From contig OY820579.1 in the NCBI GenBank assembly GCA_963681965.1, positions 928,001 to 992,000 on the forward strand: DNA of 64,000 nucleotides. The letters are read 5' to 3'. The notes beneath the pieces were generated by a model. That model was not told the DNA's origin, made no database searches, and saw only the letters and a program-made list of their open reading frames with translations. The stretch is from a bacterium (GTDB lineage: Bacteria > Electryoneota > JAOADG01). Made by a program: the position numbers and the translations under genes. Shown one piece after another: positions 48,396 to 63,470 of this stretch. Within the stretch, counting starts at the first letter, position 1; each line of letters opens with the position of its first letter.

Positions 48396-50009
48396 ATGAT
48401 TCCGATCTTATCAAACGAATCGATGCAAAATGCCGATAAACGCGGTATCGAAGAATTCGGGATACCATCCTTGGCATTGATGGAATCGGCAGGTCGAGCC
48501 GTTGCCGACGAAGCCGGGCGGATGCTGGCGGGAGACAATCCCGGCGGGTTATCGGGAAAGCGCGTTTTCGTACTTTGTGGCACCGGAAATAACGGAGGCG
48601 ATGGGTTTGTCGCAGCGCGACATCTCATGAATCACGGTGCGGAAGTCTGGTTGCGACTGGTTGGCGAACGCGAACGAATTCGCGGCGATGCGCTCGCTAT
48701 GCTGAAACCTTTGGAGCAACTCCGGATTGCAAAGGGACTGCGCGACAGTGGGCGAATTGAACCGTTGCAAGATCTCGAAATCGATACCCTTTCTTATATT
48801 CGCTTTGATCTAGTAATCGACGCCTTATTTGGTACCGGTCTGACCGGTCCGTTGCGGGGTGATGCGCTCCGTGCAGTGGATTTAATAAAACGCTTACGAC
48901 GCGAAAAAATTCCGGTACTGGCTGTCGATATCCCCAGCGGTTTGTCCGGAAATAATGGCGAAATCGCCGGCGACTGTGCCGGTGCTGATACCACAGTGAC
49001 GTTTGCCGCTCCGAAGTTAGGACATATGTTCGAACCCGGACGGATGCTATCCGGAAAATTGAATATCGTCGATATTGGATTGCCACAAGAGATCCTCGAA
49101 TCTGAAGCGACAACTTTTGCCGCATCGGCGAGCGATATTCGGAAGATCTTCCCGGCAATTGCTCCGGATGCTCACAAGGGAAATCGGGGCAAATTGTTCA
49201 TTTTGGCGGGATCGATCGGTTTGACAGGAGCTGCCGCATTATGCGCAAATGGCGCGGTTCGCAGCGGAGCCGGCTTGGTCGTGGTGGGAACACCCGAAAC
49301 CGCAGAAGCGACGGTTGCAGCGAAGTTATTAGAAGCAATGACGGTTGCACTTCCCGATCGCGACGGAAAACTCGTCGAACAAGCCGCTCGAGCACTCCCC
49401 GAGTGGAGCGAATGGGCGGATGCTTGGGCGATTGGACCGGGATTGGGACGATCGGAAGCCGTGACGGCATTGGTTCGGCTGATCTGGGAAAACGTCGAAT
49501 TACCGATGGTCGTGGATGCCGATGCTTTGAATGCTCTCGCAGATGTGCGCAAGGTCACAGGTACGCTACCGGTTTGTCGCGGGAAGCGTGTATTGACGCC
49601 ACATATCGGTGAATTTGCCCGATTGGCAGGCGTCGAAGTCGAAAAAGTAAAATCGGATCGAATTCGTATTGCTCGGGAATTTGCCCGACAAGCCGGAGTT
49701 GTGCTGGTTTTGAAGGGTGCACCGACGATTATCGCGGCACCGGATGGGAAAGTGTGCCTAAATTCGACAGGAAATGCCGCTTTGGCTTCGGGGGGTAGTG
49801 GTGACGTTCTCACCGGGATTATCGGGGCACTTCTGGCACGAATTCACGCCAGTGGCGCCGTTGTCGACGTTTTTTCCGCTGCCGTGGCTGCGACATGGAT
49901 TCACGGTCGAATTGCCGACCGCTGGATTGAAGCCGGTAATGTCCCGGAAGCTTTTTATTCAGAGTGTCTTTTATTGGGATTAACTGATGTTATCAATGAA
50001 ATCTGCTAG
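48396..50009 (+). CDS. nnr: Bifunctional NAD(P)HX epimerase/dehydratase
   Basis: LMESAG, GNNGGDG, DALFGTG, DIPSG, HKGNRG, GPGLG, DADALN, LTPH.GE, GGSGDVLTG. Confidence 0.93.
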   Translation: MIPILSNESMQNADKRGIEEFGIPSLALMESAGRAVADEAGRMLAGDNPGGLSGKRVFVLCGTGNNGGDGFVAARHLMNHGAEVWLRLVGERERIRGDALAMLKPLEQLRIAKGLRDSGRIEPLQDLEIDTLSYIRFDLVIDALFGTGLTGPLRGDALRAVDLIKRLRREKIPVLAVDIPSGLSGNNGEIAGDCAGADTTVTFAAPKLGHMFEPGRMLSGKLNIVDIGLPQEILESEATTFAASASDIRKIFPAIAPDAHKGNRGKLFILAGSIGLTGAAALCANGAVRSGAGLVVVGTPETAEATVAAKLLEAMTVALPDRDGKLVEQAARALPEWSEWADAWAIGPGLGRSEAVTALVRLIWENVELPMVVDADALNALADVRKVTGTLPVCRGKRVLTPHIGEFARLAGVEVEKVKSDRIRIAREFARQAGVVLVLKGAPTIIAAPDGKVCLNSTGNAALASGGSGDVLTGIIGALLARIHASGAVVDVFSAAVAATWIHGRIADRWIEAGNVPEAFYSECLLLGLTDVINEIC

Positions 50010-50098
50010 CGATTTATCGTAGCATATTGAAAATGGTACATGAATTGATCGTTAGATCGTGTAAATCGAATAGTTATAACGACTGAAAAGATCGCATA

Positions 50099-50491
50099 AT
50101 GGATGATAATAACATCGTGAAACATTCCATTCAGTGGCGGTGGAGTTGGATTTGGATCTCACTTGCTTGGGCATTGATTTTAACGATCTTGTCGTCAATT
50201 CCGGGAAAGTCGATGCCGCATTGGCATGTACTTAGCGAAGACAAGTTAATTCATTGCCTATTTTACATGCCTTTTGGTTGGACGATCCTCTCCGCTTTTG
50301 GACGTAAGTATTGGTTTCGATTTGGATTTATGATGATGATTGTGATGTTATATGGCGGTTGTGATGAAGTACACCAACATTTCGTGCCGGGACGCACAAT
50401 GGATGTTTGGGATTGGAGTTTCGATGCACTTGGCGGGGCAATCGGCGGTAGTATTTTTCTTATGTGGGAAAAGCGTTTTCCGCGTGGATGA
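50099..50491 (+). CDS. VanZ-family membrane protein
   Basis: DKLIH, DEVHQHFVPGR...DW..D..G. Confidence 0.85.
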   Translation: MDDNNIVKHSIQWRWSWIWISLAWALILTILSSIPGKSMPHWHVLSEDKLIHCLFYMPFGWTILSAFGRKYWFRFGFMMMIVMLYGGCDEVHQHFVPGRTMDVWDWSFDALGGAIGGSIFLMWEKRFPRG

Positions 50492-50555
50492 CCAACTAAT
50501 TATTATCGAACAACCGATCGCCCGAAATAAACTATTAACTTCAACAAGGTGAATC

Positions 50556-51083
50556 ATGGCAGGCTCAGTTAACAAAGTCATCCTCATCGGTAGACTGGGA
50601 CGCGATCCCGAGTTACGCTATACCCCGAATGGAGCAGCCGTTTGCTCGTTCTCAATTGCCACCGACGATAGTTACACCGACCGTGACGGGCAAAAACAAG
50701 AGCGTACGGAATGGCACAACATTGTTATTTTTCAGAAATTGGGAGAGATCGCTCATCAATATCTGAAAAAAGGATCGCAGGTATATCTCGAAGGTTCAAT
50801 TCGTTCACGGGAATACGTGGACAAAGAGAATGTCAAGCGTCGGATGACTGAAATCGTTGTAAATGAAATGCAAATGCTTGGCAGTAAACCTCGTGATGAC
50901 GAAGAGCATCCCGACGCAGGTGGTTATGGCAAAGTCTATGGATCGCGTCCGACTCAGGGTCCATCCGGACCGAAATCACCACCTAGTCAGTCTGGGAGTG
51001 CTCGGGGGGCTCGACCGACGCCTCCTCCGGCTTCTCCGGGAGGCGCTCCAACGGGTGAGCTGGAAGACGACCTGCCGTTCTAA
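50556..51083 (+). CDS. ssb: Single-stranded DNA-binding protein
   Basis: SVNKVILIGRLGRDPELRYT, TEWH, C-terminal DDLPF. Confidence 0.97.
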   Translation: MAGSVNKVILIGRLGRDPELRYTPNGAAVCSFSIATDDSYTDRDGQKQERTEWHNIVIFQKLGEIAHQYLKKGSQVYLEGSIRSREYVDKENVKRRMTEIVVNEMQMLGSKPRDDEEHPDAGGYGKVYGSRPTQGPSGPKSPPSQSGSARGARPTPPPASPGGAPTGELEDDLPF

Positions 51084-51389: not shown

Positions 51390-54300
51390 ATGACTAATCG
51401 AAAATGGTTCTTCCTGTTCACCGTTTTCATGTTGCTTTCCGTCACCGCGTTGACTGCATTTGCGTCTCCGGGGTCGGGATCGGCAACTCCAAACAGTGAC
51501 GGGCAGTATCTTCAAGACATCGCTAATCGGATGTTGAGAGGCTTACCGGTTACGGCTCAGGAGAAGGCAGATGTAACGCCTTATCTCGAGTCGCAACGCG
51601 GTTATGTCTCACCGATCAGCTCAACCGACGCCGTAAGTGCGGCTCCGGATGGATACGGTTATACCTGGATTGACAACAATGCTCAGGTAACCCCTCCCGG
51701 ACCAACTTACACTTGGATCGACATCAGTACGACCGGAACTACCGGTCCGACCGGTGACGATGTCACGTCAGCCATGGTACCATTGGGATTCACGTTCCCA
51801 TTTTACGGCATGAATTTCACCTCCGTCACGATGAGTACCGACGGTTGGCTCTCGTTTAACAGCGCATTTGCCAGCTTATCGAGTAGCTGGTATTCGCAGT
51901 ATTCGTTGCCATCTGCCAGCATGCCACAAAGCTTGATTGCGGTTCTGTACCGCGACTCTTATGTGACGAGTGCTACTAGTTACATTAAGTATCAGCAGTA
52001 CAATTCCACCACGTTTATCGTACAGTGGAATACTGACTCCGGTGAACAATACGAAGCCATTCTAACATCGGATGGTAATATCAAATTGCAGTACAATGTT
52101 GCCACGGCAAATACCGGAACGATCGGTCTTCAGAACGACGCTCGTACGATTGCCTGTCAATATCAGTATAGCACTGCATGCCCGGTTTCCGGTCGCGCAA
52201 TTTTGTTTGTTCCACCCTGTAACACTGTGACTCAAGTTAGCCCGGCAAACGGGACCATCGGTGTCACTACAGAAACCCAAACGTTGACTTGGGTTGGTGG
52301 ATCTTGCACCGCCAACTACGATCTCTATTGCTCGACAGTTCAGGCAGATGTATCGAGTGGTGCAGTTGCAGCACAACAACTAGTAGGTTCGACTGCGACC
52401 TCTTTTATTATGCCGATTACCGCCGGCAACGTCTATTATTGGAAAGTAGTTGCGCATGGCACTTCGCCTGCAACCAACACTTCCCCGATTTGGACGTTTA
52501 ACACGATCGCGGCGCTGACTGGCACCAAGACGATCAACCCGGCATTACCGACCGGTGGCGATAACTATCAGACCTTCGCCGCTGCCGTTACCGCATTATA
52601 TGCGGCTGGTGCAGGCACCGGTGGTGTAACGTTTAACGTTTCTCCCGGAACCTATATCGAACAAGTCACCTTGACGGGTGCTTATCCCGGTATGGGCGCC
52701 TCCAGTCCGGTCACTTTCCGTGCGGTCGGTGTTGGTGTCAACATCAGCCCGAACGTCACAACCACACTTCAGTACGGTGTAAAACTTTCCGGTGCGCAGT
52801 ATGTAACGTTTGACGGTATCAACATCGTCGACGCCAGCACTGGCACCTATCCACTGTATTATGGATACTGGCTTAACAATAGCGCCGGTACGCTTGGTGC
52901 ACGATATAACACCATCAAGAACGCGACGATTCAAATGCGAATCAACGCATCCTATGCAACCTACGGTGTGTATCAATATTACAATACATCTCCGTATCCA
53001 TCTTCCGCCTTGGGAAGCCAGAGTTACAACCGCTACCTCAACCTGAAGATCTCGAAGGTTCGGTATGGCGTGTACTGCTACTCATATTCTTCCTACCCGG
53101 ATATGGGCAACGAAATCGGCAGCGAAGTTTCCGGTTTCGACAACACCAATCGCTTCGTAATCGGTTCGGCAGTTGGCGATACTATCGGTGGCGCTGGTGC
53201 CGCCTACGGTATCTATGCCAACTACCAGAATGGTCTGTCGATTCACGATATCGATATTAAGAACCTGAAGACTTATACTAGCAGTTACACGATGTACGGT
53301 ATGTATCTGTATTACTCTCCGTATTCTGGTGGTACTGCTTCTCCATTGCTGATTTACAACAACCGTGTTTACGATTTTACCGCGTTGTATACCAGTGGCT
53401 ATACGACCATGTATGGTATCTATTCATACTTGTACTATTCATACGGTCATCAGCGCATCTACAACAACATGGTCTACAATCTGCAACAGACGTATACCGG
53501 TACGGTTACGGCATCGTATTACACGTACGGTATCTATTGCGGATATTATTATCCGACCGTCGTGAACAACACGATCATGTTGAATCAACTTGGTACGCAG
53601 AACTTCTCTTCGGCGTGTCTCTATTACAGTTCGAATTATGCTGCCAACGATACGTGCAAGAATAATATTTTTGCGAACCTGGGTAGCCAGACTTCGACTA
53701 CGCCATATCACGTTGGCATGTACAACCCCTGTACTTACCCGGCAAACTGGATCACGAGTAACAACAGTTACTACATCCCGAATGCTACCGGCGGTTACAT
53801 TGGTTACAATGCCGCAGCTTATCGTGCGACGCTTAGCGCATTTCAGACTGCCTATACGCCGAACGTCGATCTTGCGTCGACTACTGGCGATCCGCTGTTT
53901 AGAAACAGTGCAACGTTACCGTACGATGTCCGCATTCTTGAGAATCAAGGTGCGTCGGTAATTGAAAATCTCGGAACGCCGACATTCGTTACTACCGATA
54001 TCGAAGGTCAAGCGCGTAGCTTGACGACGCCTGATATCGGCGCCGACGAAGGAACGTTCGTTACGTTAGTTCCGACCGCTCCAACTGTATCCTATCCGGC
54101 AAATCCCTCAACCAGCATTCCAACGAATGCGACGTTGATGTGGAACGCATCGGCAGGCGGCTCGCCGATGACTTATGCCGTTTACTACGATGATTTCACT
54201 CCGCCGACGACAGTTCGTGCTAGTGGATTATCCGCTTTGAATTATACACCTTCATCCGAACTCAGCCCGACGACGACCTATTACTGGAAAGTTGTTGCTC

Positions 54301-57300
54301 ACAATAGCTATGGTGATACTCCCGGTGGAATCTGGCAGTTCACGACCAGTGCTGGCGTTGCACCAAATGCGCCTACCGATGCGGCACCTCCAATTTCCGG
54401 CGTTGCCACAACGGCGTTGACGTTTAACTGGGTTGACAACTCCTTGAACGAAACCGGCTTCCCGATCGAACGTTCGACGGACGGTACTACATTCTCGGCA
54501 TTGACAACTGCAGCAATAAATGCCACAACCTATACTAACACTGGTTTGACTCCGTCGACCCGTTACTGGTATCGTGCATACGCGATTGGTACCGGTGGAC
54601 GATCGGCTACCTGGGCATCCGGCGACAGTTGGACGCTTGCCAGTGTTCCTGGTGCACCGACGTTTGGTGCTGCTGCATTCACGACTCTTCAAGTGACTCC
54701 GGCTAACGGTTCGCCTGCCAACTCGGCTGCAGCGACCTATGCAATTCACGAAACCACCACCAACCAGTTCGTTCAGGCAACCGGCGCATTAGGCGCAACT
54801 GCTGTCTGGCAACCGTTGGCAACGTGGGGAACGGTAACCGTTACCGGTTTGTTGCAGGCGACCAGTTACACCTTCGAAGTGAAGGCGCGTAATGGTGCCC
54901 TCATTGAAACCGTTTACGGTCCTACCGGTACCGGTACCACCGGCGATCCGTTCCATCTCGGACCGGATGCTTATGGCTATCGTTTGATCGCCAATAACGG
55001 TACTGGTTACAACTGGATTACCCCGTCTGGCACGGCGACCACGGTGAGTGGCTGGTCGGCCACCGACGACGGTAGCGCAGGTCCGTACAATATCGGCTTC
55101 AACTTCTCGTTCTACGGTCATACTTACACGACGTGGTATGCTGGAAGTAATGGTCGAATTCAGTTTGGTGGACAGAATGCGTACAATTATTCCAGTGCGA
55201 CATTCCCGTTGACTGGTGGCTATCCCGCCGGTGTCTACTTCTGGAACTACGATATGTCGGTCGCCTCGACCACAGTCGTGTACGAAAACCTGACCGCCCC
55301 GAACCGCTTGGTCGTTACCTATACCAACTTCGCCACGCTTGGTGGTTATGGTCCGATTGCGGCTCAGGTCGTTGTGTATGAAGATGGTCGGGTTGATGTG
55401 AATTACGGACCCCGTAACTCAACGACTCAGACGTATTGTGCCGCTGCTGCTATTCAGGATACAAACGGAACAAACGGTTGTCTCCAGTATGCACCGCCGA
55501 CCCCGGATTCGCTGAGAACCTATCACTTCTTCAAGCTGAATGCACCGACGGTTCCGGTTCCTGCCAATACCGCAACTGGCGTTCCGACGAATGCCACGTT
55601 AAGCTGGGTTGGCGACGCCAATGCGACGGGTTACGATGTCTATTTCGGCACATCGGCAACTCCGCCGTTGGTATCTTCGAATCAAACCGGTTTGTCTTAC
55701 ACTCCGGCGACTTTGGATACAATGACTGTGTACTATTGGCGCGTTGACTCCCGCATGGGTTCGACGGTTGTTACCGGTACGCCATGGTCATTCACTTCCG
55801 GTCGGGGAGTTGCACCGAACGCTCCGACGAACGGTCAAATCTTGTCAGCCACGTTGAATACTCTTGGCGGTACGTTTACGGACAACTCCGACAACGAAAC
55901 CGGCTTCATCGTTCAGCGCTCATTGGATGGAACTACCTTTACAAACTATGCAACTCTTTCCGCACATACCGGTACGGGTACGGTTATGTTAGGGGATACC
56001 GGCTTAACCGCCAATACTCATTACTGGTATCGCGTATTCTCAACCAATGCCGCCGGTACTTCCACTGGTTATGCTGCGGCAGATGGTTGGACATTGTCGT
56101 TACCGACGATGGCATTCACAACCACATCATCGGCGACTCCGCTTACTTCGGCAAACTTCGGTATCCGAGTGATTGGCGCTCCGATTACGGTAACCTATAC
56201 GGTTCGTAATACCGGTGGCACGCCGTTGAATATTGGTAGTGTCGTTTCCAGCAATACCGCAGTAACCACAAGCTGGACATCGCAAACGATCGCCGGCGGT
56301 GGCACTCAGAATATCGATGTGATCTGGGCACCGACTGTTGGTGGCGCGCTTGCCAGTACCTTAACGTTTAACTCGGATGCGACCAATAACCCGGTTGTAA
56401 TCAACGTTACCGGTACGGCAATGGCAGTCCATAACTTGCCCATCACGACTGATTTCAGTGGCACCTTCCCACCGTCGGAATGGACCATCATCAATCCCGA
56501 TGCAAGTATTACCTGGACGCAGTACACTTCTCCATACAGTGCTCATATGAACTGGTGGAGCTACGGTACACACGGTGCGTTGGATTATCTGGTCACCCCG
56601 ATTGTTTCGACTGTCGGTGTAACATCAGCCGGATTTGATTTCGACTGGTCCTATTACTATTACTCGTCCTACAATGACTCACTGATGATCAAGTACACGC
56701 TGGATGGCGGTACGAACTGGACAACCATCTGGAAGCGTTGGGGTCACGGCACTGGCACTGACTCGCTACCCGCCGGTACCGGTGGTGCTTCTATGACACC
56801 GGCAACAGCTGGCACTTGGGGTCATGCCTCGATTATGCTCGCTGGCACCGGTTGCTTGGGTCAGCCGCAAGTTCAGTTTGCACTCGTATCCGGTAACGAT
56901 TACGGTGCCGACTTGTACTTGACCAACTTGAACATTTACAACCTTGACGGTGCAGCATTGTCAACCAGTGCTACGTCGTTGTCGTTTGCCGGTGCTTACG
57001 GTAACTGTGCGAATACCCGTTCGATCGTTCTTACGAACACCGGTACTCAACCGTTGCACGTCACTTCGATGACTGCTTCGACCGTTTCGCTCAGTCACCC
57101 GTCGGCGACAATTGCCGTTGGCGCAACCGATACGTTGGTTACCACTTGGACGCCAACCGCTGGCGCAACCTTGGTCGACACCTTGGTCATCGTTTCCGAT
57201 GCACTCAATGGTTCGCCCCGGAAGATTCCGCTTAGCGGCGCTTCGGTGACTCCATTCACCGCGTTGCCCGTTTCCGCAAACTTTGGAAACGTACTCGTGG

Positions 57301-59486
57301 GCGGATCCAAGGTGTTAACAATTGGTCTTACCAATCAAAGTACTTGCCCGCAGCAAATTTCGGCAGTGACCAGTCCCGCGACGGTAACTCCGGAATGGGG
57401 CGCTCGTTTGTTCCCTGCGTTGGGTACTGCTAATATTTCGTTCCTCTGGACACCGACCGTTGCCGGTACGCTCGCTGGTAACGATACGTTGTTCGCCGAT
57501 GGTGGCAATTTGCTTGTTCCGGCAACCGGAACCGCATTAAATGCCTTTGTTGATCGGCAGATGAATGGTGTGACTCCCTGGTTTGCTCCGACCGGTGGAT
57601 TGACCACGACTCCATTTACCTTCACCGCCGGCTTCTATGCAGCGTCGACGATGACAGTTGACTCGGTTGTCGTGATCTTGGGTGCTTCTCGCTACCCGAT
57701 GACTCTTACTGGTGGTACATTGCCTGGTGAACTTGACTATGCAGTTACCACAACGATTCCGACAGTTGGTTCGACGGCTTACACCATCACTGCTTATTAT
57801 CAGTTTGGTGGTGCGCAGACGTACACAACCTCCTCGATTACCGGTCCGACCGTATTGCCGGCTCATACCGGTGGTCCGGATGCAGCAGGCTATTGCTATC
57901 GTACCAGCTTTGCAGATGGCGGTCCAACATTTGGTTGGGTTGCTCATACCGCTTCGGCTGTGACGCAAACAACCTGGACCAGTGTGGACGACGGAAACTC
58001 CGGTGCAGTACCGATCGGATTTTCGTTCCCGTTCTACGGTAACAACTACACGACCATGTATCTTGGCACCAACGGTCGAATCGAATTCGGTGGAACGTAC
58101 GATTACTCGTATAGTCAAGTGACATTCCCGTATGCTTCTGACTCGGCTGCAATCATGTTCTGGAATCGGGATATGCATGTCGGTTATGCGCCGAACACCG
58201 TTGTACGTTACGAAACGTTCACCGATCATTGCGTTATCACTTATGACAGCTTGTCGATATACGGTACAAACGGTGCATCTCGGTTGAGTGCGCAAATCAT
58301 ACTGTATTCGACCGGTCGTGTTGTTTTACAGTATCGCAACTATGTCGGTACTTTATCTCTTAGTTCCGTCGGTATTCAGAATGGTACTGGTTCAACCTAT
58401 CTGGCGTACATCCAGAGTGGTGCGACAATACCAGCTGAAAACTCGGCGATCGAGTTCTATCAACCGGCAATGCTTGCCGCCAACCCAACTTCGGTTGCTT
58501 ACGGTAGTGTTACAGTTGGAACGACGAACAACCAAACAACCTACGTGAAGAATGTTGGCCGCGCCGCGTTGAATATCACCGGCGTGTCCGCACCGGCACA
58601 CGTAACCCCAAGCTGGTTGACTCATACAATTGCCGCTGGCGACTCCGCCTTATTGCAATTGACTTGGGTTCCAACAGCTTCCGGCGACCTGACTGGTAAC
58701 GTCACGTTTACTTCCGATGCCTCGAACAGCTCGTTCGCTATTCCGCTTACCGGTACTGCTTCCGGTTATCCGGATATCGCATTGAACGTCGCTTCGGTTG
58801 CGTTTGGTAACGTGTTGGTTGGTTCGACGTCCAGTTCACAGCTTGTTTACGTACGCAGTACCGGTACGATCCCGTTAACGTTAAACACCGTCACTGGACC
58901 GGCGACATTGGTAGTAACTGAAACACTGCCGATCACGATCCCAGTTGGCGATTCCGCAGCGGTTCATATTAGTTGGCAACCAGGTGCCGAAGGCACGATG
59001 AGCAGCAACGTGGTTTGGGGCAGCAACTCTGTTCCGACCCCCTCGCTGAACCTCCCGTGCTCGGGCTACGGTTACACCCCGGCAGGCGTACCTAACCTGT
59101 CGATCAGCTACAACCTGACACTTACCAAGGTCGTCTTGACTTGGGATCGTCCGGCTGGAACCATTACGGGTTATAAGATCTACCGTAACGCTACTGGTTA
59201 CTTCCACCCGTTGAACGTAGCTCCGCTTCTGACTGGAACGTTGATCCAAACGATCACCGACCCGTCGATCCTGACTTACGAAGACTTGGGCGTAACTGGC
59301 AGGTGGTATTATCGCGTAGTCGCATACAACGATGCATCCTCGACTTCGTCGATCGGTTCAACGACCGGTTCCGCTAAGCGCCTCAACGAGGCTCTCCTTA
59401 GCCCGAACACGACCCTGAATTCGACGACAAAAGTAACTCCGGTTGCACCCGTTACGACCACGACGAAATCACAATTCAAGAAGTAG
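51390..59486 (+). CDS. Giant exported modular protein (nidogen-like 'PDxxGY' repeats, Tyr-rich beta-helix, FN3, choice-of-anchor D/ASH Ig repeats, MAM-like domain); no T9SS CTD
   Basis: Sec signal (..LTAFA); three PDxxGY...GFxFxFYG units; W.DNS.NETGF FN3 repeats; YYW[KR]V repeats; 'FG...N.G...L.I' Ig repeats; ends in a Thr/Ser-rich basic tail. RBS GAGGAG. Confidence 0.85.
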   Translation: MTNRKWFFLFTVFMLLSVTALTAFASPGSGSATPNSDGQYLQDIANRMLRGLPVTAQEKADVTPYLESQRGYVSPISSTDAVSAAPDGYGYTWIDNNAQVTPPGPTYTWIDISTTGTTGPTGDDVTSAMVPLGFTFPFYGMNFTSVTMSTDGWLSFNSAFASLSSSWYSQYSLPSASMPQSLIAVLYRDSYVTSATSYIKYQQYNSTTFIVQWNTDSGEQYEAILTSDGNIKLQYNVATANTGTIGLQNDARTIACQYQYSTACPVSGRAILFVPPCNTVTQVSPANGTIGVTTETQTLTWVGGSCTANYDLYCSTVQADVSSGAVAAQQLVGSTATSFIMPITAGNVYYWKVVAHGTSPATNTSPIWTFNTIAALTGTKTINPALPTGGDNYQTFAAAVTALYAAGAGTGGVTFNVSPGTYIEQVTLTGAYPGMGASSPVTFRAVGVGVNISPNVTTTLQYGVKLSGAQYVTFDGINIVDASTGTYPLYYGYWLNNSAGTLGARYNTIKNATIQMRINASYATYGVYQYYNTSPYPSSALGSQSYNRYLNLKISKVRYGVYCYSYSSYPDMGNEIGSEVSGFDNTNRFVIGSAVGDTIGGAGAAYGIYANYQNGLSIHDIDIKNLKTYTSSYTMYGMYLYYSPYSGGTASPLLIYNNRVYDFTALYTSGYTTMYGIYSYLYYSYGHQRIYNNMVYNLQQTYTGTVTASYYTYGIYCGYYYPTVVNNTIMLNQLGTQNFSSACLYYSSNYAANDTCKNNIFANLGSQTSTTPYHVGMYNPCTYPANWITSNNSYYIPNATGGYIGYNAAAYRATLSAFQTAYTPNVDLASTTGDPLFRNSATLPYDVRILENQGASVIENLGTPTFVTTDIEGQARSLTTPDIGADEGTFVTLVPTAPTVSYPANPSTSIPTNATLMWNASAGGSPMTYAVYYDDFTPPTTVRASGLSALNYTPSSELSPTTTYYWKVVAHNSYGDTPGGIWQFTTSAGVAPNAPTDAAPPISGVATTALTFNWVDNSLNETGFPIERSTDGTTFSALTTAAINATTYTNTGLTPSTRYWYRAYAIGTGGRSATWASGDSWTLASVPGAPTFGAAAFTTLQVTPANGSPANSAAATYAIHETTTNQFVQATGALGATAVWQPLATWGTVTVTGLLQATSYTFEVKARNGALIETVYGPTGTGTTGDPFHLGPDAYGYRLIANNGTGYNWITPSGTATTVSGWSATDDGSAGPYNIGFNFSFYGHTYTTWYAGSNGRIQFGGQNAYNYSSATFPLTGGYPAGVYFWNYDMSVASTTVVYENLTAPNRLVVTYTNFATLGGYGPIAAQVVVYEDGRVDVNYGPRNSTTQTYCAAAAIQDTNGTNGCLQYAPPTPDSLRTYHFFKLNAPTVPVPANTATGVPTNATLSWVGDANATGYDVYFGTSATPPLVSSNQTGLSYTPATLDTMTVYYWRVDSRMGSTVVTGTPWSFTSGRGVAPNAPTNGQILSATLNTLGGTFTDNSDNETGFIVQRSLDGTTFTNYATLSAHTGTGTVMLGDTGLTANTHYWYRVFSTNAAGTSTGYAAADGWTLSLPTMAFTTTSSATPLTSANFGIRVIGAPITVTYTVRNTGGTPLNIGSVVSSNTAVTTSWTSQTIAGGGTQNIDVIWAPTVGGALASTLTFNSDATNNPVVINVTGTAMAVHNLPITTDFSGTFPPSEWTIINPDASITWTQYTSPYSAHMNWWSYGTHGALDYLVTPIVSTVGVTSAGFDFDWSYYYYSSYNDSLMIKYTLDGGTNWTTIWKRWGHGTGTDSLPAGTGGASMTPATAGTWGHASIMLAGTGCLGQPQVQFALVSGNDYGADLYLTNLNIYNLDGAALSTSATSLSFAGAYGNCANTRSIVLTNTGTQPLHVTSMTASTVSLSHPSATIAVGATDTLVTTWTPTAGATLVDTLVIVSDALNGSPRKIPLSGASVTPFTALPVSANFGNVLVGGSKVLTIGLTNQSTCPQQISAVTSPATVTPEWGARLFPALGTANISFLWTPTVAGTLAGNDTLFADGGNLLVPATGTALNAFVDRQMNGVTPWFAPTGGLTTTPFTFTAGFYAASTMTVDSVVVILGASRYPMTLTGGTLPGELDYAVTTTIPTVGSTAYTITAYYQFGGAQTYTTSSITGPTVLPAHTGGPDAAGYCYRTSFADGGPTFGWVAHTASAVTQTTWTSVDDGNSGAVPIGFSFPFYGNNYTTMYLGTNGRIEFGGTYDYSYSQVTFPYASDSAAIMFWNRDMHVGYAPNTVVRYETFTDHCVITYDSLSIYGTNGASRLSAQIILYSTGRVVLQYRNYVGTLSLSSVGIQNGTGSTYLAYIQSGATIPAENSAIEFYQPAMLAANPTSVAYGSVTVGTTNNQTTYVKNVGRAALNITGVSAPAHVTPSWLTHTIAAGDSALLQLTWVPTASGDLTGNVTFTSDASNSSFAIPLTGTASGYPDIALNVASVAFGNVLVGSTSSSQLVYVRSTGTIPLTLNTVTGPATLVVTETLPITIPVGDSAAVHISWQPGAEGTMSSNVVWGSNSVPTPSLNLPCSGYGYTPAGVPNLSISYNLTLTKVVLTWDRPAGTITGYKIYRNATGYFHPLNVAPLLTGTLIQTITDPSILTYEDLGVTGRWYYRVVAYNDASSTSSIGSTTGSAKRLNEALLSPNTTLNSTTKVTPVAPVTTTTKSQFKK

Positions 59487-59497
59487 TAGATTCGGGT

Positions 59498-59524
59498 ACC
59501 CCCTCCGGCTTAGCCGGAGGGGGT
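59498..59524 (+). other. Strong GC-rich hairpin after the giant gene (terminator or mRNA stabiliser)
   Basis: ACCCCCTCCGGC-tta-GCCGGAGGGGGT perfect stem, extendable with CGGG/CCCG; no U tract. Confidence 0.55.
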
Positions 59525-59805
59525 GGTTCCCGGTCACGATTTAAACTTATGCTGCTGGTTGTTACTCTTAGAGAAAAGAGAAGTTAAGTAGTTGAGGAGT
59601 ACATTTTTTCGAGGCGGCATTTGTCGAATTTGGTCTCTTTGAGTTTTAAACTTAGATTAAACAATAGTACAAAAAGTTAATACAAATCACATGATTTTTT
59701 TTTAAGATAGATTGTTCGCTTGCTTTCGCAGAAAAGCCGATTTAATATATCGTTATGTCTGTAGAAAGCGATTTATCAGTTTTTTATTAACATATGGGAG
59801 GTAAC

Positions 59806-60735
59806 ATGAAAGGAAAGGCGCTTGCGATTTTGCTAGCGATCCTTGTTGCCGGAACCGCTTTTGCGTTAGAATCTGGACCATCCAATCCGGTCGGGTTCTT
59901 CACCGTAACTGTCACCCGTGCTGCCAACTCGGTCGGATACAATATGGTTAGTTTTCCGACTTTGCCGGCTAGTGCGACCTTGGCGAATACGATCGGCGCA
60001 CAAGTTCCCGGTAATAACACCAGTTCGTTTGCAACGACGATGTATTGGTACGACAATACCAGTAGCGCGTATTCCAGCGCATATAAGACTGGTACCGGTA
60101 CCACGTGGTCGGGTGCGTTTTCGACTTTGGAATCCCGTAAAGGTTATTATATCGTTCTTCGCAATCGAGCCGGCGTCAATTTGTCTTATGACGTCGTCGT
60201 CGCAGGCGATGTTCGCACGACCGCTTGGGATATGGGCACAATTCAAGTCGGTTACAACATGATTGGTTCCGTTTATGCGGCACCGATTCGTTTGGATTCG
60301 ACTCGTTTGGTTTCTGGTACCACTCGTATGAAAGGTGGTATCAGCCAAGGTCAATCCGACTTGTTAATGTGGTACAATGGTTCTGGATTCTCGACCGCCT
60401 ATTTAAACAATTCTTATGTATGGCAGGGAACTGCGATTACGACGTTGGAACCGGGCAAAGGATATTGGATTGTTCGTCGTTCCGGTCGTACTCCCGCAAC
60501 CTTTGCTTGGAACGATTACCCAGCACCAGCAGGTAGCGGTTCCAGTTCTTCCAGTGGTATTTTGAGCGCCGGCGTTCAACCGACTGTTACGACAACTGCG
60601 ATGCCCAGTCACATCAATGCGACCGCATCGACCAGCAGTGTGAATGTCGGTTCGAAAATCAAGTCGACTCCGGTGACGGCAGCTACGGCAGTGCCAGTAG
60701 TCAACACCACAGCAACTGCGAAGAAGACCAAGTAA
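59806..60735 (+). CDS. Exported protein with N-terminal 'ESxPSNPVG' and two 'GYNM[VI]...TLE..KGY[YW]I' repeats
   Basis: RBS GGGAGG before ATG 59806; signal peptide ending AFA; internal two-fold repeat; Thr/Ala/Val-rich tail ending AKKTK; no CTD. Confidence 0.75.
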   Translation: MKGKALAILLAILVAGTAFALESGPSNPVGFFTVTVTRAANSVGYNMVSFPTLPASATLANTIGAQVPGNNTSSFATTMYWYDNTSSAYSSAYKTGTGTTWSGAFSTLESRKGYYIVLRNRAGVNLSYDVVVAGDVRTTAWDMGTIQVGYNMIGSVYAAPIRLDSTRLVSGTTRMKGGISQGQSDLLMWYNGSGFSTAYLNNSYVWQGTAITTLEPGKGYWIVRRSGRTPATFAWNDYPAPAGSGSSSSSGILSAGVQPTVTTTAMPSHINATASTSSVNVGSKIKSTPVTAATAVPVVNTTATAKKTK

Positions 60736-60815: not shown

Positions 60816-63470
60816 ATGAAAAAAACGCTATTCGGTCTTGCGTTTCTAATTATGCTGGTTGGATCGGCTCTCGCCAATCCAATTGGTTTTGACTTTGCGA
60901 CATTCGACGTTAACGGCGAAGTACTCTACACGATTATGTATAATGGCAGCCCGGTTCCTCAGGGAAGCTTGTTACAGGTCATTCGTCCGAACGGCACGTT
61001 ACATGCCCCATCTGAAGCCGCTGGCGATCTTGGTGCAGTATCTGGTGGTGACATCATCAATTCGCAATGGCAAATTGGTGAAGGTACCGGTGCCGATGGT
61101 TTGTTTGCGTTGTTCCTAACGGGTCAATCTTCTGCCCCGAACAATACGCAAAATGCCACTTCGTTGAATGCTGGAACCAATTTCTACGTTCGTATTTGGG
61201 CTGATGTATCACTCGGCGCTTCGGCTCCGTTTGCCTCCGGCTCACATTACGTTGACGGTGGTCCGTATATCGTACCGACTGCTGACGGTTCTTTGTGGGA
61301 TGTCCAAGTTAATCCGACTTCGGCTTCGCCGACTTGGTTGACTTGTGGTTCCGCAGTTCTTCCCGCAGCGATTTCGGTAACTGAAGTTGGCGGTGGCGCG
61401 ATTTCCGCTCCGTTGGATTTCGGTTCCTCGATTATGGGAACTCCGGTTACTCATACCATTCGTATTTCCAATACTGGTGGTTCGGATCTGACTCTTGCCG
61501 GTGGTGCAATTACCGGTGATTTCAGCTATTCCGCATTGACCAGCCCGGTTGCCGCTGGTGGACACCTTGACGTAACTCTTACGTTCAATCCGTCCGCTAC
61601 TGGTGCTCGCGTCGGCGTGTTTGGTTTCACGCACAATGCCGCAGGCAGCCCGTATTCCTTGAGCTTGACTGGTACCGGTCTTCCGGTTCCGGCTCCGGTT
61701 CTTGCCGTAACTGAAGTTGGCGGTGGCGCGATTTCCACCCCGTTAGATTTCGGTTCATCCGTAATTGGTACCCCGGTTACTCATACCATTCGCATTTCCA
61801 ATACTGGAACTGCCGATTTGACTTTGGGTACTGGTTCGATTACTGGCGATTTCAGCCATGCAGCATTGACTACTCCGATTGCCGCGGGTGGTCATATTGA
61901 CGTAGTTCTTACGTTCAATCCGACTGACCTAGGCGTTCGCCCCGGTTTGTTCGGCTTTACGCACAATGCTGGTGTTGCATATTCTCTAGCACTCACTGGT
62001 ACTGGTCTTCCGGTTCCGACTCCGGGTATTGCCGTCAGAATTGGTCTCGTTCCGGTTGGTGCATTGGTTCTGTTTGGTGCCGATACAATCGGTGGCGCCT
62101 CTGACCGCATTTTCACCGTTGAAAATACCGGTTCTGCGGAATTGGTCCTTAACACATTTGCCACGACCGGTGACTTTGCATTCGTTACCGCTCCGGCAGA
62201 TCCACTACCGGTCGCTGCTGGTGGAAACATTCAGTTTACCGTTCGCTTTACTCCGACAGTTGCCGGAACTCGCAATGGCACATTAACGTTCCAGCACAAT
62301 GCGACAGGTTCACCATTCTCCGTGAATCTTGAAGGCACTGGTACTACAGTAAACCGTTGGGCTGACGGTGGAAATAATACTGGCGACAACCCGCATCCGG
62401 GCGACAATGGGAATCCTTGGAATCCCTCGTTCCCACCAGATCCGGGAACGAATAATTTACCGCCAGTTCTCTTGGCGTTCAGCGGTAATGTTGGTGTTCA
62501 GCCGGTTCAGGTTGTAGTCAACTACGTGACCGATTATCCGACCGAATTGCCGGTTGGCGGTTTCACTGGTCCTGGCATCTTCAATCCGATGCCCTACAAT
62601 CCACTTGAAAACATTCAACGTTGGTGGAATATCAACCAGCTCGGTGGCTCAAGCTTCCGCGCCCGTGTTGAACTCTATTTCACTGACAACGATCTGCCGG
62701 TTGGTTTCGGCGATCCACGTACGCATACCCCACGGTTGATGGCATTGGCTTATCACCTTGGCGTGTGGCAGTACTACTATCCGGTAATCGATCTGTACGC
62801 TGCTGGCTCGCCAAACGTATGGCGCGCAACGATGTATAACGTACAGCAGTTCTCGACTTGGACGTTGACCGCTCAGCCAGTTACCCCGGTAACCGCGTTG
62901 ACGATGGACGCTTCGGCAGGTGACCGTCAGGTTACGTTGCATTGGAGTGTTGCGACCGAAGTCAATAACTGGGGCTTTGAGATCGAGCGTAAGCTTGCCG
63001 ACGATCCGACGAGCAATTGGACGCTAGTTCATCAAGAACTTTCCAAGGCTGATGGTGGCAACAGTGCAGTACCGTTAAACTACTACTATGTTGACAGCTA
63101 CAATCTTGAAAACGGTCGTACGTATTCCTATCGTATTACCGACAAGGCACTTGATGGCTCTGTCACGTCGAATACTTCACGCACGGTAACGCCGCATGCG
63201 GCAGTCGTGAATGAATATTCGTTGTCGAACTACCCGAACCCGTTCAACCCGACTACCCGAATTGCATATTCGATGGTATCGGAAGGCAATGTCAAGATCA
63301 CTGTCACCAATATTATGGGACAGACGATTGCGACGTTAGTGAATGGCTCGGCGAAGCGCGGCACGCATTATGTAAATTGGAATGCTAGCGACATGCCGTC
63401 GGGAATTTATTTCCTCCGCATGGAAACTACTGGTTTCAATACGATGCGCAAGATGGTACTCTCCAAGTAG
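60816..63470 (+). CDS. T9SS-CTD protein with three choice-of-anchor D/ASH Ig repeats and an FN3-like domain
   Basis: RBS GGAGG; signal peptide; LDFG...ISNTG..DL repeats; PV..L...V.L.W.VATEVNN.GF.IER; C-terminal NYPNPFNPTT...SGIYF...RKMVLSK. Confidence 0.85.
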   Translation: MKKTLFGLAFLIMLVGSALANPIGFDFATFDVNGEVLYTIMYNGSPVPQGSLLQVIRPNGTLHAPSEAAGDLGAVSGGDIINSQWQIGEGTGADGLFALFLTGQSSAPNNTQNATSLNAGTNFYVRIWADVSLGASAPFASGSHYVDGGPYIVPTADGSLWDVQVNPTSASPTWLTCGSAVLPAAISVTEVGGGAISAPLDFGSSIMGTPVTHTIRISNTGGSDLTLAGGAITGDFSYSALTSPVAAGGHLDVTLTFNPSATGARVGVFGFTHNAAGSPYSLSLTGTGLPVPAPVLAVTEVGGGAISTPLDFGSSVIGTPVTHTIRISNTGTADLTLGTGSITGDFSHAALTTPIAAGGHIDVVLTFNPTDLGVRPGLFGFTHNAGVAYSLALTGTGLPVPTPGIAVRIGLVPVGALVLFGADTIGGASDRIFTVENTGSAELVLNTFATTGDFAFVTAPADPLPVAAGGNIQFTVRFTPTVAGTRNGTLTFQHNATGSPFSVNLEGTGTTVNRWADGGNNTGDNPHPGDNGNPWNPSFPPDPGTNNLPPVLLAFSGNVGVQPVQVVVNYVTDYPTELPVGGFTGPGIFNPMPYNPLENIQRWWNINQLGGSSFRARVELYFTDNDLPVGFGDPRTHTPRLMALAYHLGVWQYYYPVIDLYAAGSPNVWRATMYNVQQFSTWTLTAQPVTPVTALTMDASAGDRQVTLHWSVATEVNNWGFEIERKLADDPTSNWTLVHQELSKADGGNSAVPLNYYYVDSYNLENGRTYSYRITDKALDGSVTSNTSRTVTPHAAVVNEYSLSNYPNPFNPTTRIAYSMVSEGNVKITVTNIMGQTIATLVNGSAKRGTHYVNWNASDMPSGIYFLRMETTGFNTMRKMVLSK
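61376..62027 (+). repeat. Tandem intragenic duplication, about 330-bp unit
   Basis: GTAACTGAAGTTGGCGGTGGCGCGATTTCC occurs at about 61377 and 61707; similarity continues through both Ig units. Confidence 0.9.

Follow-up and report, generated by a model that had tools for sequence, protein, structure and literature searches.

A C-terminal FN3 domain that stops after strand F and a candidate strand donor encoded next to it in Electryoneota

In a 64,000-nucleotide stretch of an Electryoneota genome (contig OY820579.1; "the window" denotes this whole analyzed stretch), the gene for a very large secreted protein is followed by the gene for a small one, and the pair raises a simple question: is the last domain of the first protein, a fibronectin type III (FN3) domain that ends before its final strand, completed by the N-terminus of the second? 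We denote these two products the giant and the donor, and the product of the next gene P0003 (open reading frame [ORF] coordinates in Table 1); a client is any protein that closes in a giant-type C-terminal FN3 ending at strand F. A sequence-only reading of the window had proposed that the two neighbors dock by donor-strand complementation. With moderate confidence, and leaning on structure prediction, we favor an account in which the donor segment completes the client FN3 in trans, with one donor serving many clients. The donor-client pair is probably a shared docking device tied to type IX secretion.

The giant contains many Ig-like, ASH, and choice-of-anchor D domains, as well as three copies of an approximately 190-amino acid domain outside the coverage of any Pfam model; the copies start near GYGYTWID, AYGYRLIA, and AAGYCYRT. 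As the sequence-only reading stated, it ends with an FN3-like unit that passes into low-complexity sequence. When the whole giant was scanned, the Pfam fn3 profile (PF00041) matched residues 2568-2649 (E 1.4e-09; 38.4 bits, cut-off 25), with the match covering only profile positions 4-72 of 84, and a 51-residue Ser/Thr-rich tail follows. Scanned alone, this module gave no fn3 match at E up to 0.1, and fn3 was matched by 5 of 20 C-terminal modules treated in the same way (best E 8.7e-08). The subtype marks of the giant's C-terminal FN3 are GY.IYR, GYF.P, and YYRV. AlphaFold2 modeling of the last 149 amino acids, using an alignment with three orthologous ends (A3, 4 rows), revealed six strands, A, B, C, C', E, and F (fragment residues 23-27, 31-36, 45-51, 68-73, 80-84, and 91-97), the last being YYRVVAY, and no G strand after F; for residues 101-149, the pLDDT (predicted local distance difference test) score is below 50. 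Because the alignment consists of four rows, this model by itself is weak evidence that the strand is missing. In a Foldseek search with the model, the top 50 PDB matches were FN3 domains, monobodies, or FN3 consensus designs (probability 0.99-1.00), with template modeling scores by target of 0.12-0.62 (0.45-0.62 for single-domain targets). The module therefore has the fold of an FN3 and matches its profile, and a seventh (G) strand in the same chain was not found. The segment SSTSSIG, which might have served as the domain's own G strand, is not predicted as one; the tail after strand F is unconserved among orthologs and paralogs, and 8 of the 19 paralogs described below have no residues left for such a strand. 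A dedicated search found no shorter homologs of the giant's C-terminus. The giant had been described as lacking a C-terminal sorting domain, in agreement with an NCBIfam scan that detected no type IX secretion system (T9SS) sorting domain (TIGR04183) in the giant or the donor.

The donor, after a signal peptide ending in AFA, begins with LESGPSNPVGFFTVTV, as had been read previously, and the residues in question form the segment LESGPSNPVGFFT. The likening of ES.PSN.V to a G strand fits the internal FN3s encoded in the same genome, in which S-x-Y-[ST]-N precedes a strand at the same distance past strand F. In the alignment of the donor with eight close homologs, LESGPSNPVGFF following the signal peptide is invariant in 9/9 sequences, as are L21-F32 and the final Lys, despite overall identity of 43-58%. 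Both the motif and the donor family occur once in the 4.24-Mb genome; a second donor gene in this genome was considered and rejected, given that the donor profile produced one match. The invariance of L21-F32, the single occurrence of the motif, the six-strand AlphaFold2 model, and the Foldseek FN3 matches together indicate that the observation in the window exceeds chance.

The remainder of the donor is a pair of small beta-sandwich domains related by an internal duplication (z 6.6). Its AlphaFold2 model (57-row alignment) has a mean pLDDT of 84.6, with values of 91-98 over residues 31-240, and residues 21-28 are coil with pLDDT of about 75. The donor matches no named family above cut-off in Pfam (E up to 0.01) or NCBIfam; a PDB sequence search returned 0 matches, Foldseek comparison of the model with PDB gave none at E up to 0.001, a protein atlas search retrieved only "hypothetical protein" clusters, and the best hits of VIA-align in its wide mode were generic small sandwiches and jelly rolls (Z up to 4.1). 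The choice-of-anchor R domain (NF041539) was rejected as an assignment (cut-off 30; a single one of 57 family members gave a match, at 16.1 bits), and three matches to longer homologs, covering 4-7% of the query, were not used. We leave the fold of the donor without a name here; these search results do not imply that the fold is new.

A phylum-level search with the giant's last 130 amino acids identified 18 places in the same genome, 18/18 of them at the C-terminus of an ORF. We then compiled a client profile (A5, a 20-row alignment of C-terminal ends from this genome and two orthologs) and searched all stop-to-stop frames of the genome, obtaining 53 domain matches; the 19 ORFs that score at least 79 bits carry the module at the C-terminus without exception, as do about eight weaker matches, and FN3 domains internal to proteins score 40 bits or less and possess ordinary G strands. 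The ORF ends 4-7 residues past the YYRV core of strand F in 8 of the 19 and 13 residues past it in two; the other strong matches have Ser-rich, unconserved tails. Five positions of A5 are invariant (W37, R51, F57, Y93, and R94), and conservation falls to zero after strand F. Because a C-terminal module without the G strand recurs in about twenty proteins, its absence is not an accident of one gene. The possibility that the G strand is encoded beyond the stop codons, to be reached by readthrough or frameshift, was rejected: nothing coding continues after the client stops, and TGA, TAG, and TAA are all in use. As the donor is a single-copy protein, it would be the common docking partner of many clients.

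Most clients are large, with 12 of the 19 ORFs encoding 1500-2900 amino acids, five 350-610, and two 119 and 92. A crude pattern detects a signal peptide in 20 of 27 clients, and several more were recognized by eye. The two short client-type frames (genome positions 1252826-1253182, 119 amino acids, and 2676089-2676364, 92 amino acids) lack a signal peptide and probably represent gene fragments or disrupted genes. None of the 20 client modules (0/20) matches TIGR04183 or any other NCBIfam sorting domain, and neither Pfam nor NCBIfam has a specific family for the module; one module gave a weak Usher match (E 0.012), which most likely reflects noise. Many client tails open with [AG]-S-S-S-S directly past strand F and close with Lys or Arg. 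The donor and its orthologs likewise have a Ser run and a tail closing in the invariant Lys, which could be a glycosylation or processing site.

The giant's last 149 amino acids (alignment A3) and donor residues 21-250 (alignment A2) were modeled together with ESMFold2, using our own alignments. In three runs, the interface score ipSAE (interaction prediction score from aligned errors) was 0.80, 0.81, and 0.79, and the best of three controls reached 0.01; pLDDT was 90-91 for the partner and 64-65 for the other chain, and the runs agreed in at least 46% of contacts. The ipSAE mark used was reached by 58 of 80 solved complexes and by 2 of 110 mismatched pairs, a calibration that is rough here, given the use of our own alignments. 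The lowest-error residue pairs place donor residues 33-26 antiparallel to strand F (giant fragment 88-93) and donor residues 29-31 parallel to strand A (fragment 21-25), so that the modeled donor strand takes the place and orientation of a native FN3 G strand. On the client side, the interface takes in the subtype marks GYF.P (53-58) and Y92/R93; on the donor side, it takes in a face of the jelly rolls (129-136, 157-159, and 241-244). Recall of a solved complex by the predictor is unlikely because PDB holds no sequence relative of the donor. The model thus supports, short of demonstrating, binding of the donor by the giant, and with the six-strand model and the fusions described next, it lends computational support to the donor-strand complementation that the sequence-only reading had put forward.

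A full scan of 1.84 billion representative proteins identified 103 relatives of the donor. Many are stand-alone secreted proteins with the mature N-terminus E-S-x-P-S-x-x-V-G-aromatic; others are long surface proteins that end in the double domain. In these fusions, an FN3-like domain lies immediately ahead of it, and the equivalent of the donor N-terminus sits at the position of the FG loop and G strand. Scanning 110 donor family members with both profiles detected an A5-type FN3 in 12, and in 11 of the 12 (two of these being near-identical cluster mates), the gap from the end of the FN3 match to the start of the donor-profile match is -4 to 33 residues, with the latter beginning at donor profile positions 20-30. 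The A5 scores are low, 12-35 bits, and the geometry is constant. In P0066, for example, a signal peptide and FN3 strands A-F are followed by a short linker, then by ESDPSETVGF and the double domain; the same arrangement, with no linker, is seen in P0035 and P0055. BLASTP comparison of the giant's end with the fusions was weak (P0035, E 1e-4; P0099, E 0.09), and the profile test was used instead; Pfam does not recognize the FN3 ahead of the donor domain in most fusions. Natural FN3-donor fusions, which the earlier proposal had suggested looking for, accordingly exist, 11 of the 12 with an A5 match being joined at the F|G boundary. Judged by sequence, the two genes of the window are one chain elsewhere, the split falling between strands F and G.

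Across the phylum, a single-sequence search detected the donor in 29 of 79 genomes, and the family profile in 76 of 79, including all 51 of high quality; most have a single stand-alone gene encoding 270-330 amino acids. In 25 of 30 distinct loci read, the mature N-terminus has P-S-N, then [VA]-G, and then a hydrophobic residue that is mostly aromatic. We denote the window's own family within the phylum f1 and the other families f2-f7 and f9. Of 26 non-f1 loci (f2, f3, f5, f6, f7, and f9), the ORF ends 1-25 residues past the client profile match in 17, all from f5, f6, f7, or f9, and the match mostly ends in strand F. The 41 loci of f3 and f4 yielded five clear C-terminal G-less FN3s and one more with a 21-residue tail, and in f2, there was one among 74 domain matches. 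Profile A5 was built from f1 and may miss clients of other families; because of this training, the low counts outside f1 are lower bounds.

The gene that accompanies the donor most constantly is the one downstream. P0003 matches TIGR04183 (38.2 bits, cut-off 23) and also carries choice-of-anchor D repeats; its N-terminal domain (about 150 amino acids) is homologous to that of the post-donor gene product in 7 other loci (eight in total, from f1, f3, and f4), and a profile made from this domain matches the downstream gene in 3 of 6 f5, f7, and f9 loci. For stand-alone donors, the following gene has a T9SS cargo-like end in 14 of 15 loci, and the two genes often overlap at their stop and start codons; these calls were made from the C-terminal sequence, with hidden Markov model confirmation for P0003. 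The exception is genome G043 (L147 3630-5100, plus strand), where the post-donor protein has a P0003-type N-terminal domain and ends in a G-less FN3; here, the donor's usual partner looks like a client. In f2, the donor domain and TIGR04183 belong to a single protein in 3 of 3 cases read (31-32 bits, cut-off 23). These fusions are about 460 amino acids long, with the double jelly-roll as the N-terminal half (L142 240-1649, minus strand; L143 2337-3680, minus strand; L144 3186-4574, plus strand), and their N-terminus reads D-V-V-G-F-W, with the P-S-N loop absent. In genome G044, the second donor-family gene, P0014, follows a T9SS cargo gene (L024 7606-8280, minus strand). The genome of the window itself has at least 150 TIGR04183 matches (246 candidates at first look), which is an unusually high proportion of its proteome. 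T9SS transports proteins in the folded state, and its substrates need a folded C-terminal domain (PMC9251779, in the portion available). The link of the donor to T9SS is well founded genetically; its mechanism we infer.

Upstream of the donor, the gene varies among loci. Distant relatives in f7 retain nnr, ssb, donor, and T9SS cargo in that order (window 48396-51083; L140 173-3894), and in the window's family, one or two giant genes lie between ssb and the donor, so that the giant gene is an insertion there. Of the conserved gene pairs that the sequence-only reading had suggested searching for, the constant one is that of the donor with the downstream T9SS cargo, and its idea of docking between the two neighbors is supported but needs widening: pairing between giant and donor strands is modeled, but it is not specific to the pair, the donor being a phylum-wide single-copy protein with many clients. 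Between the two genes, the hairpin after the giant's stop starts within GTAG and is followed on its 3' side by an A+T-rich gap of about 270 nt; a consensus scan of this interval for promoters and terminators gave nothing above the shuffled expectation.

Table 1. Features at the giant-donor junction and downstream (window coordinates)
Feature	Coordinates	Strand	Remarks
Giant secreted protein	51390..59486	+	2698 aa; signal peptide; client
C-terminal FN3 module of the giant, strands A-F only	59094..59330	+	giant residues 2569-2647, NLSISYN to WYYRVVAYN
Ser/Thr-rich tail of the giant, 51 residues, ending KK	59331..59483	+	predicted disordered
G+C-rich hairpin after the giant's stop	59493..59535	+	stretch 59480-59560: -40.7 kcal/mol, z -4.15
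Donor ORF	59806-60735	+	309 aa; ATG at 59806 the favored start, GGGAGG ribosome site 4 nt upstream
Donor signal peptide	59806..59865	+	residues 1-20, ends AFA
Donor segment	59866..59904	+	residues 21-33; likeness to FN3 FG loop and G strand
Two tandem small jelly-roll-like beta-sandwich domains of the donor	59890..60540	+	residues 29-245; internal duplication
Donor tail and stop codon	60541..60735	+	disordered, Ser/Thr/Pro-rich, ends in invariant Lys
P0003, T9SS cargo protein	60816..63470	+	884 aa; type A sorting domain at residues 806-881

Taken together, these observations suggest the following scheme. The giant and about 18 further large secreted proteins close in an FN3 that stops after strand F, and the mature donor opens with a conserved segment resembling an FG loop and G strand, ahead of its two jelly-roll domains. 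This segment would insert between strands F and A of the client FN3, either in the periplasm or at the cell surface, rebuilding in trans the FN3-plus-double-jelly-roll module that other lineages encode as a single C-terminal piece. The donor, in turn, would presumably be tied to the cell surface via T9SS, through the downstream cargo or, in f2, through its own fused sorting domain. The sequences themselves show the class of truncated FN3s, the conserved donor motif, the gene neighborhoods, and the fusions; insertion of the strand into the client FN3 is predicted, and the export route and final location of clients and donor we infer. A more far-reaching version of this scheme, which we consider doubtful, is piggyback export: the G-less FN3 would be a new C-terminal sorting signal and the donor family its cognate receptor, capturing clients in the periplasm by strand insertion, carrying giants free of a sorting domain through the type IX translocon by means of its own sorting domain (f2) or a cargo partner, and holding them on the surface, phylum-wide.

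Several observations weigh against strand donation by the donor to its clients. Structure predictors know intact FN3s and may put any G-like strand into an empty slot; the controls for the complex were unrelated proteins, with no other strand-like peptides among them, and the client alignment behind the structure model holds four rows. The monomer model assigns donor residues 29-37 to a strand within the first domain of the donor itself, and paralog P0014 keeps this first strand without ESGPSNPVG; because 29-37 are self-paired and P0014 retains the strand, residues ~21-33 alone are free or shared. The concern that the donor's N-terminal strand is buried in its own fold applies to residues 29-37; residues 21-28 are coil in the monomer model, and 26-33 pair with the client in the complex model. 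A client's own G-like strand may exist in the second giant of G044 (TVGITAV) and in L101. Client and donor counts do not track, the donor being universal and clear clients few in f2, f3, and f4. Adjacency of the giant and donor genes is weak evidence, since 320 nt and a strong hairpin separate them and, in relatives, it is ssb that immediately precedes the donor. The scheme offers no route across the outer membrane for the clients, which lack a sorting domain, or for the donor. Several of these points would suit a six-stranded FN3 that is a self-sufficient C-terminal domain, for instance a secretion or attachment signal for another machine, with the donor motif being the relic of a fused FN3 that caps the donor's own first domain and with no binding at all: the pairing of residues 29-37 within the donor fold, the phylum-universal donor alongside few detectable clients in f2, f3, and f4, the tendency of predictors to complete known folds, and the [AG]SSSS run and basic tail of many clients, which could be a signal in their own right. 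We nevertheless regard this as unlikely. A relic would not stay invariant over 12 residues at 43-58% identity elsewhere, nor keep P-S-N..G phylum-wide; a G-less FN3 exposes the edges of strands F and A together with some of its core; the modeled interface uses precisely the residues that define the client subtype; and the cis fusions join the FN3 and donor parts at the F|G boundary.

The same fusions bear on a different target for the donor's N-terminal segment, namely, the N-terminal domain of P0003-family cargo or another donor molecule, with the giant FN3 not the main target. The donor-then-cargo order is constant (14 of 15 stand-alone loci, stop and start often overlapping), the cargo N-terminal domain is homologous across eight loci (f1, f3, and f4) with profile matches in 3 of 6 f5, f7, and f9 loci, and the gene upstream of the donor varies, all of which would be natural if cargo were the target; however, this leaves unexplained why 19 ORFs lack precisely the strand that the donor carries and why FN3 strands A-F are fused in cis with the donor, and we judge it decidedly improbable as an alternative. 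The cargo and client readings can be compatible, with the strand serving clients and the jelly rolls serving cargo. Finally, the donor could be a periplasmic chaperone that caps clients temporarily, as PapD does, the final strand coming from another surface molecule, possibly another client, which would produce chains of giants. One donor gene against at least 19 very large clients poses a stoichiometry problem for a permanent anchor, and the parallel with chaperone-usher logic is clear (PMC1868955, in the portion available). Inspection of 27 client N-termini by eye found no G-strand-like N-terminal extension, the f2 donor's own T9SS sorting domain argues for a surface location, and the cis-fused forms are permanent by construction; a chaperone role seems very improbable. 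Trans completion of client FN3s by the donor remains the reading that we favor.

If this reading is correct, it describes natural split-domain docking, in which a common FN3 fold fixes many different giant surface proteins to one partner, and it would account for the handling of very large secreted proteins without a recognized sorting domain in T9SS bacteria. The analysis also defines two unnamed families, the C-terminal FN3 ending in strand F and the double jelly-roll donor (76 of 79 genomes of the phylum, and fused in other lineages). A natural strand-plus-domain pair could serve as a ligation-free protein tagging tool.

The sequence-only reading called the mechanism undescribed. Full-text literature searches, with subscription journals outside their coverage, found no description of a C-terminal G-less FN3 paired with a donor protein and no account of piggyback export through T9SS, but the principle of strand completion is known from pili. 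Donor-strand complementation and exchange involving PapD and PapA are established knowledge. In chaperone-usher pili, according to the available portion of PMC1868955, an Ig-like subunit lacks the G strand, and its groove is filled by a strand of another protein; the window would share with these systems a beta-sandwich without the last (G) strand that is filled from another chain. The acceptor in the window, unlike that in pili, is an FN3 that closes multidomain giants rather than a pilin, and the donor strand is the N-terminal segment of a protein with two jelly rolls and no PapD-like domains in Pfam (best structural Z 4.1); no usher is implied, the predicted strand has the native FN3 G orientation, and the outcome would be docking, not polymerization. 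Type V pili (FimA/Mfa1) of Bacteroidota, a T9SS-bearing lineage, also involve strand exchange between beta-sandwich subunits, and the accounts available to us describe their pilins as lipoprotein precursors that a protease cleaves ahead of exchange. The donor differs from the Cys-bearing lipoprotein pattern of type V pilins: its signal peptide has a type I site (AFA|LE), its mature N-terminus lacks Cys, and its clients are not pilins.

Another parallel is IrmA of uropathogenic Escherichia coli, whose FN3-like domain is incomplete and receives the missing strand in trans from a second chain (PMC10269718, in the portion available). The likeness lies in the trans completion of an FN3-like domain; IrmA, as described there, is a symmetric domain-swapped homodimer of one small protein, unlike the two different gene products, with one donor for many clients, proposed here. 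The client module resembles TIGR04183 as a C-terminal beta-sandwich common to many large secreted proteins of the same genome, and differs from it in being a strand-deficient FN3 for which no cleavage or lipid attachment is implied. In SpyTag/SpyCatcher and split FN3 monobodies, a beta-sandwich has been cut by engineering into a large part and one strand that reassemble; the system of the window, if real, would be natural, conserved, and multi-client. In the cellulosome, many secreted proteins plug a small C-terminal module, the dockerin, into a common anchored partner through its cohesins. The likeness to cohesin-dockerin is one of function, with no relation in sequence or fold, and cohesin and dockerin are two complete domains, whereas here a single domain would be split between the partners. 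By such comparison, the system belongs with neither chaperone-usher pili nor IrmA, and its logic is closer to that of cohesin and dockerin.

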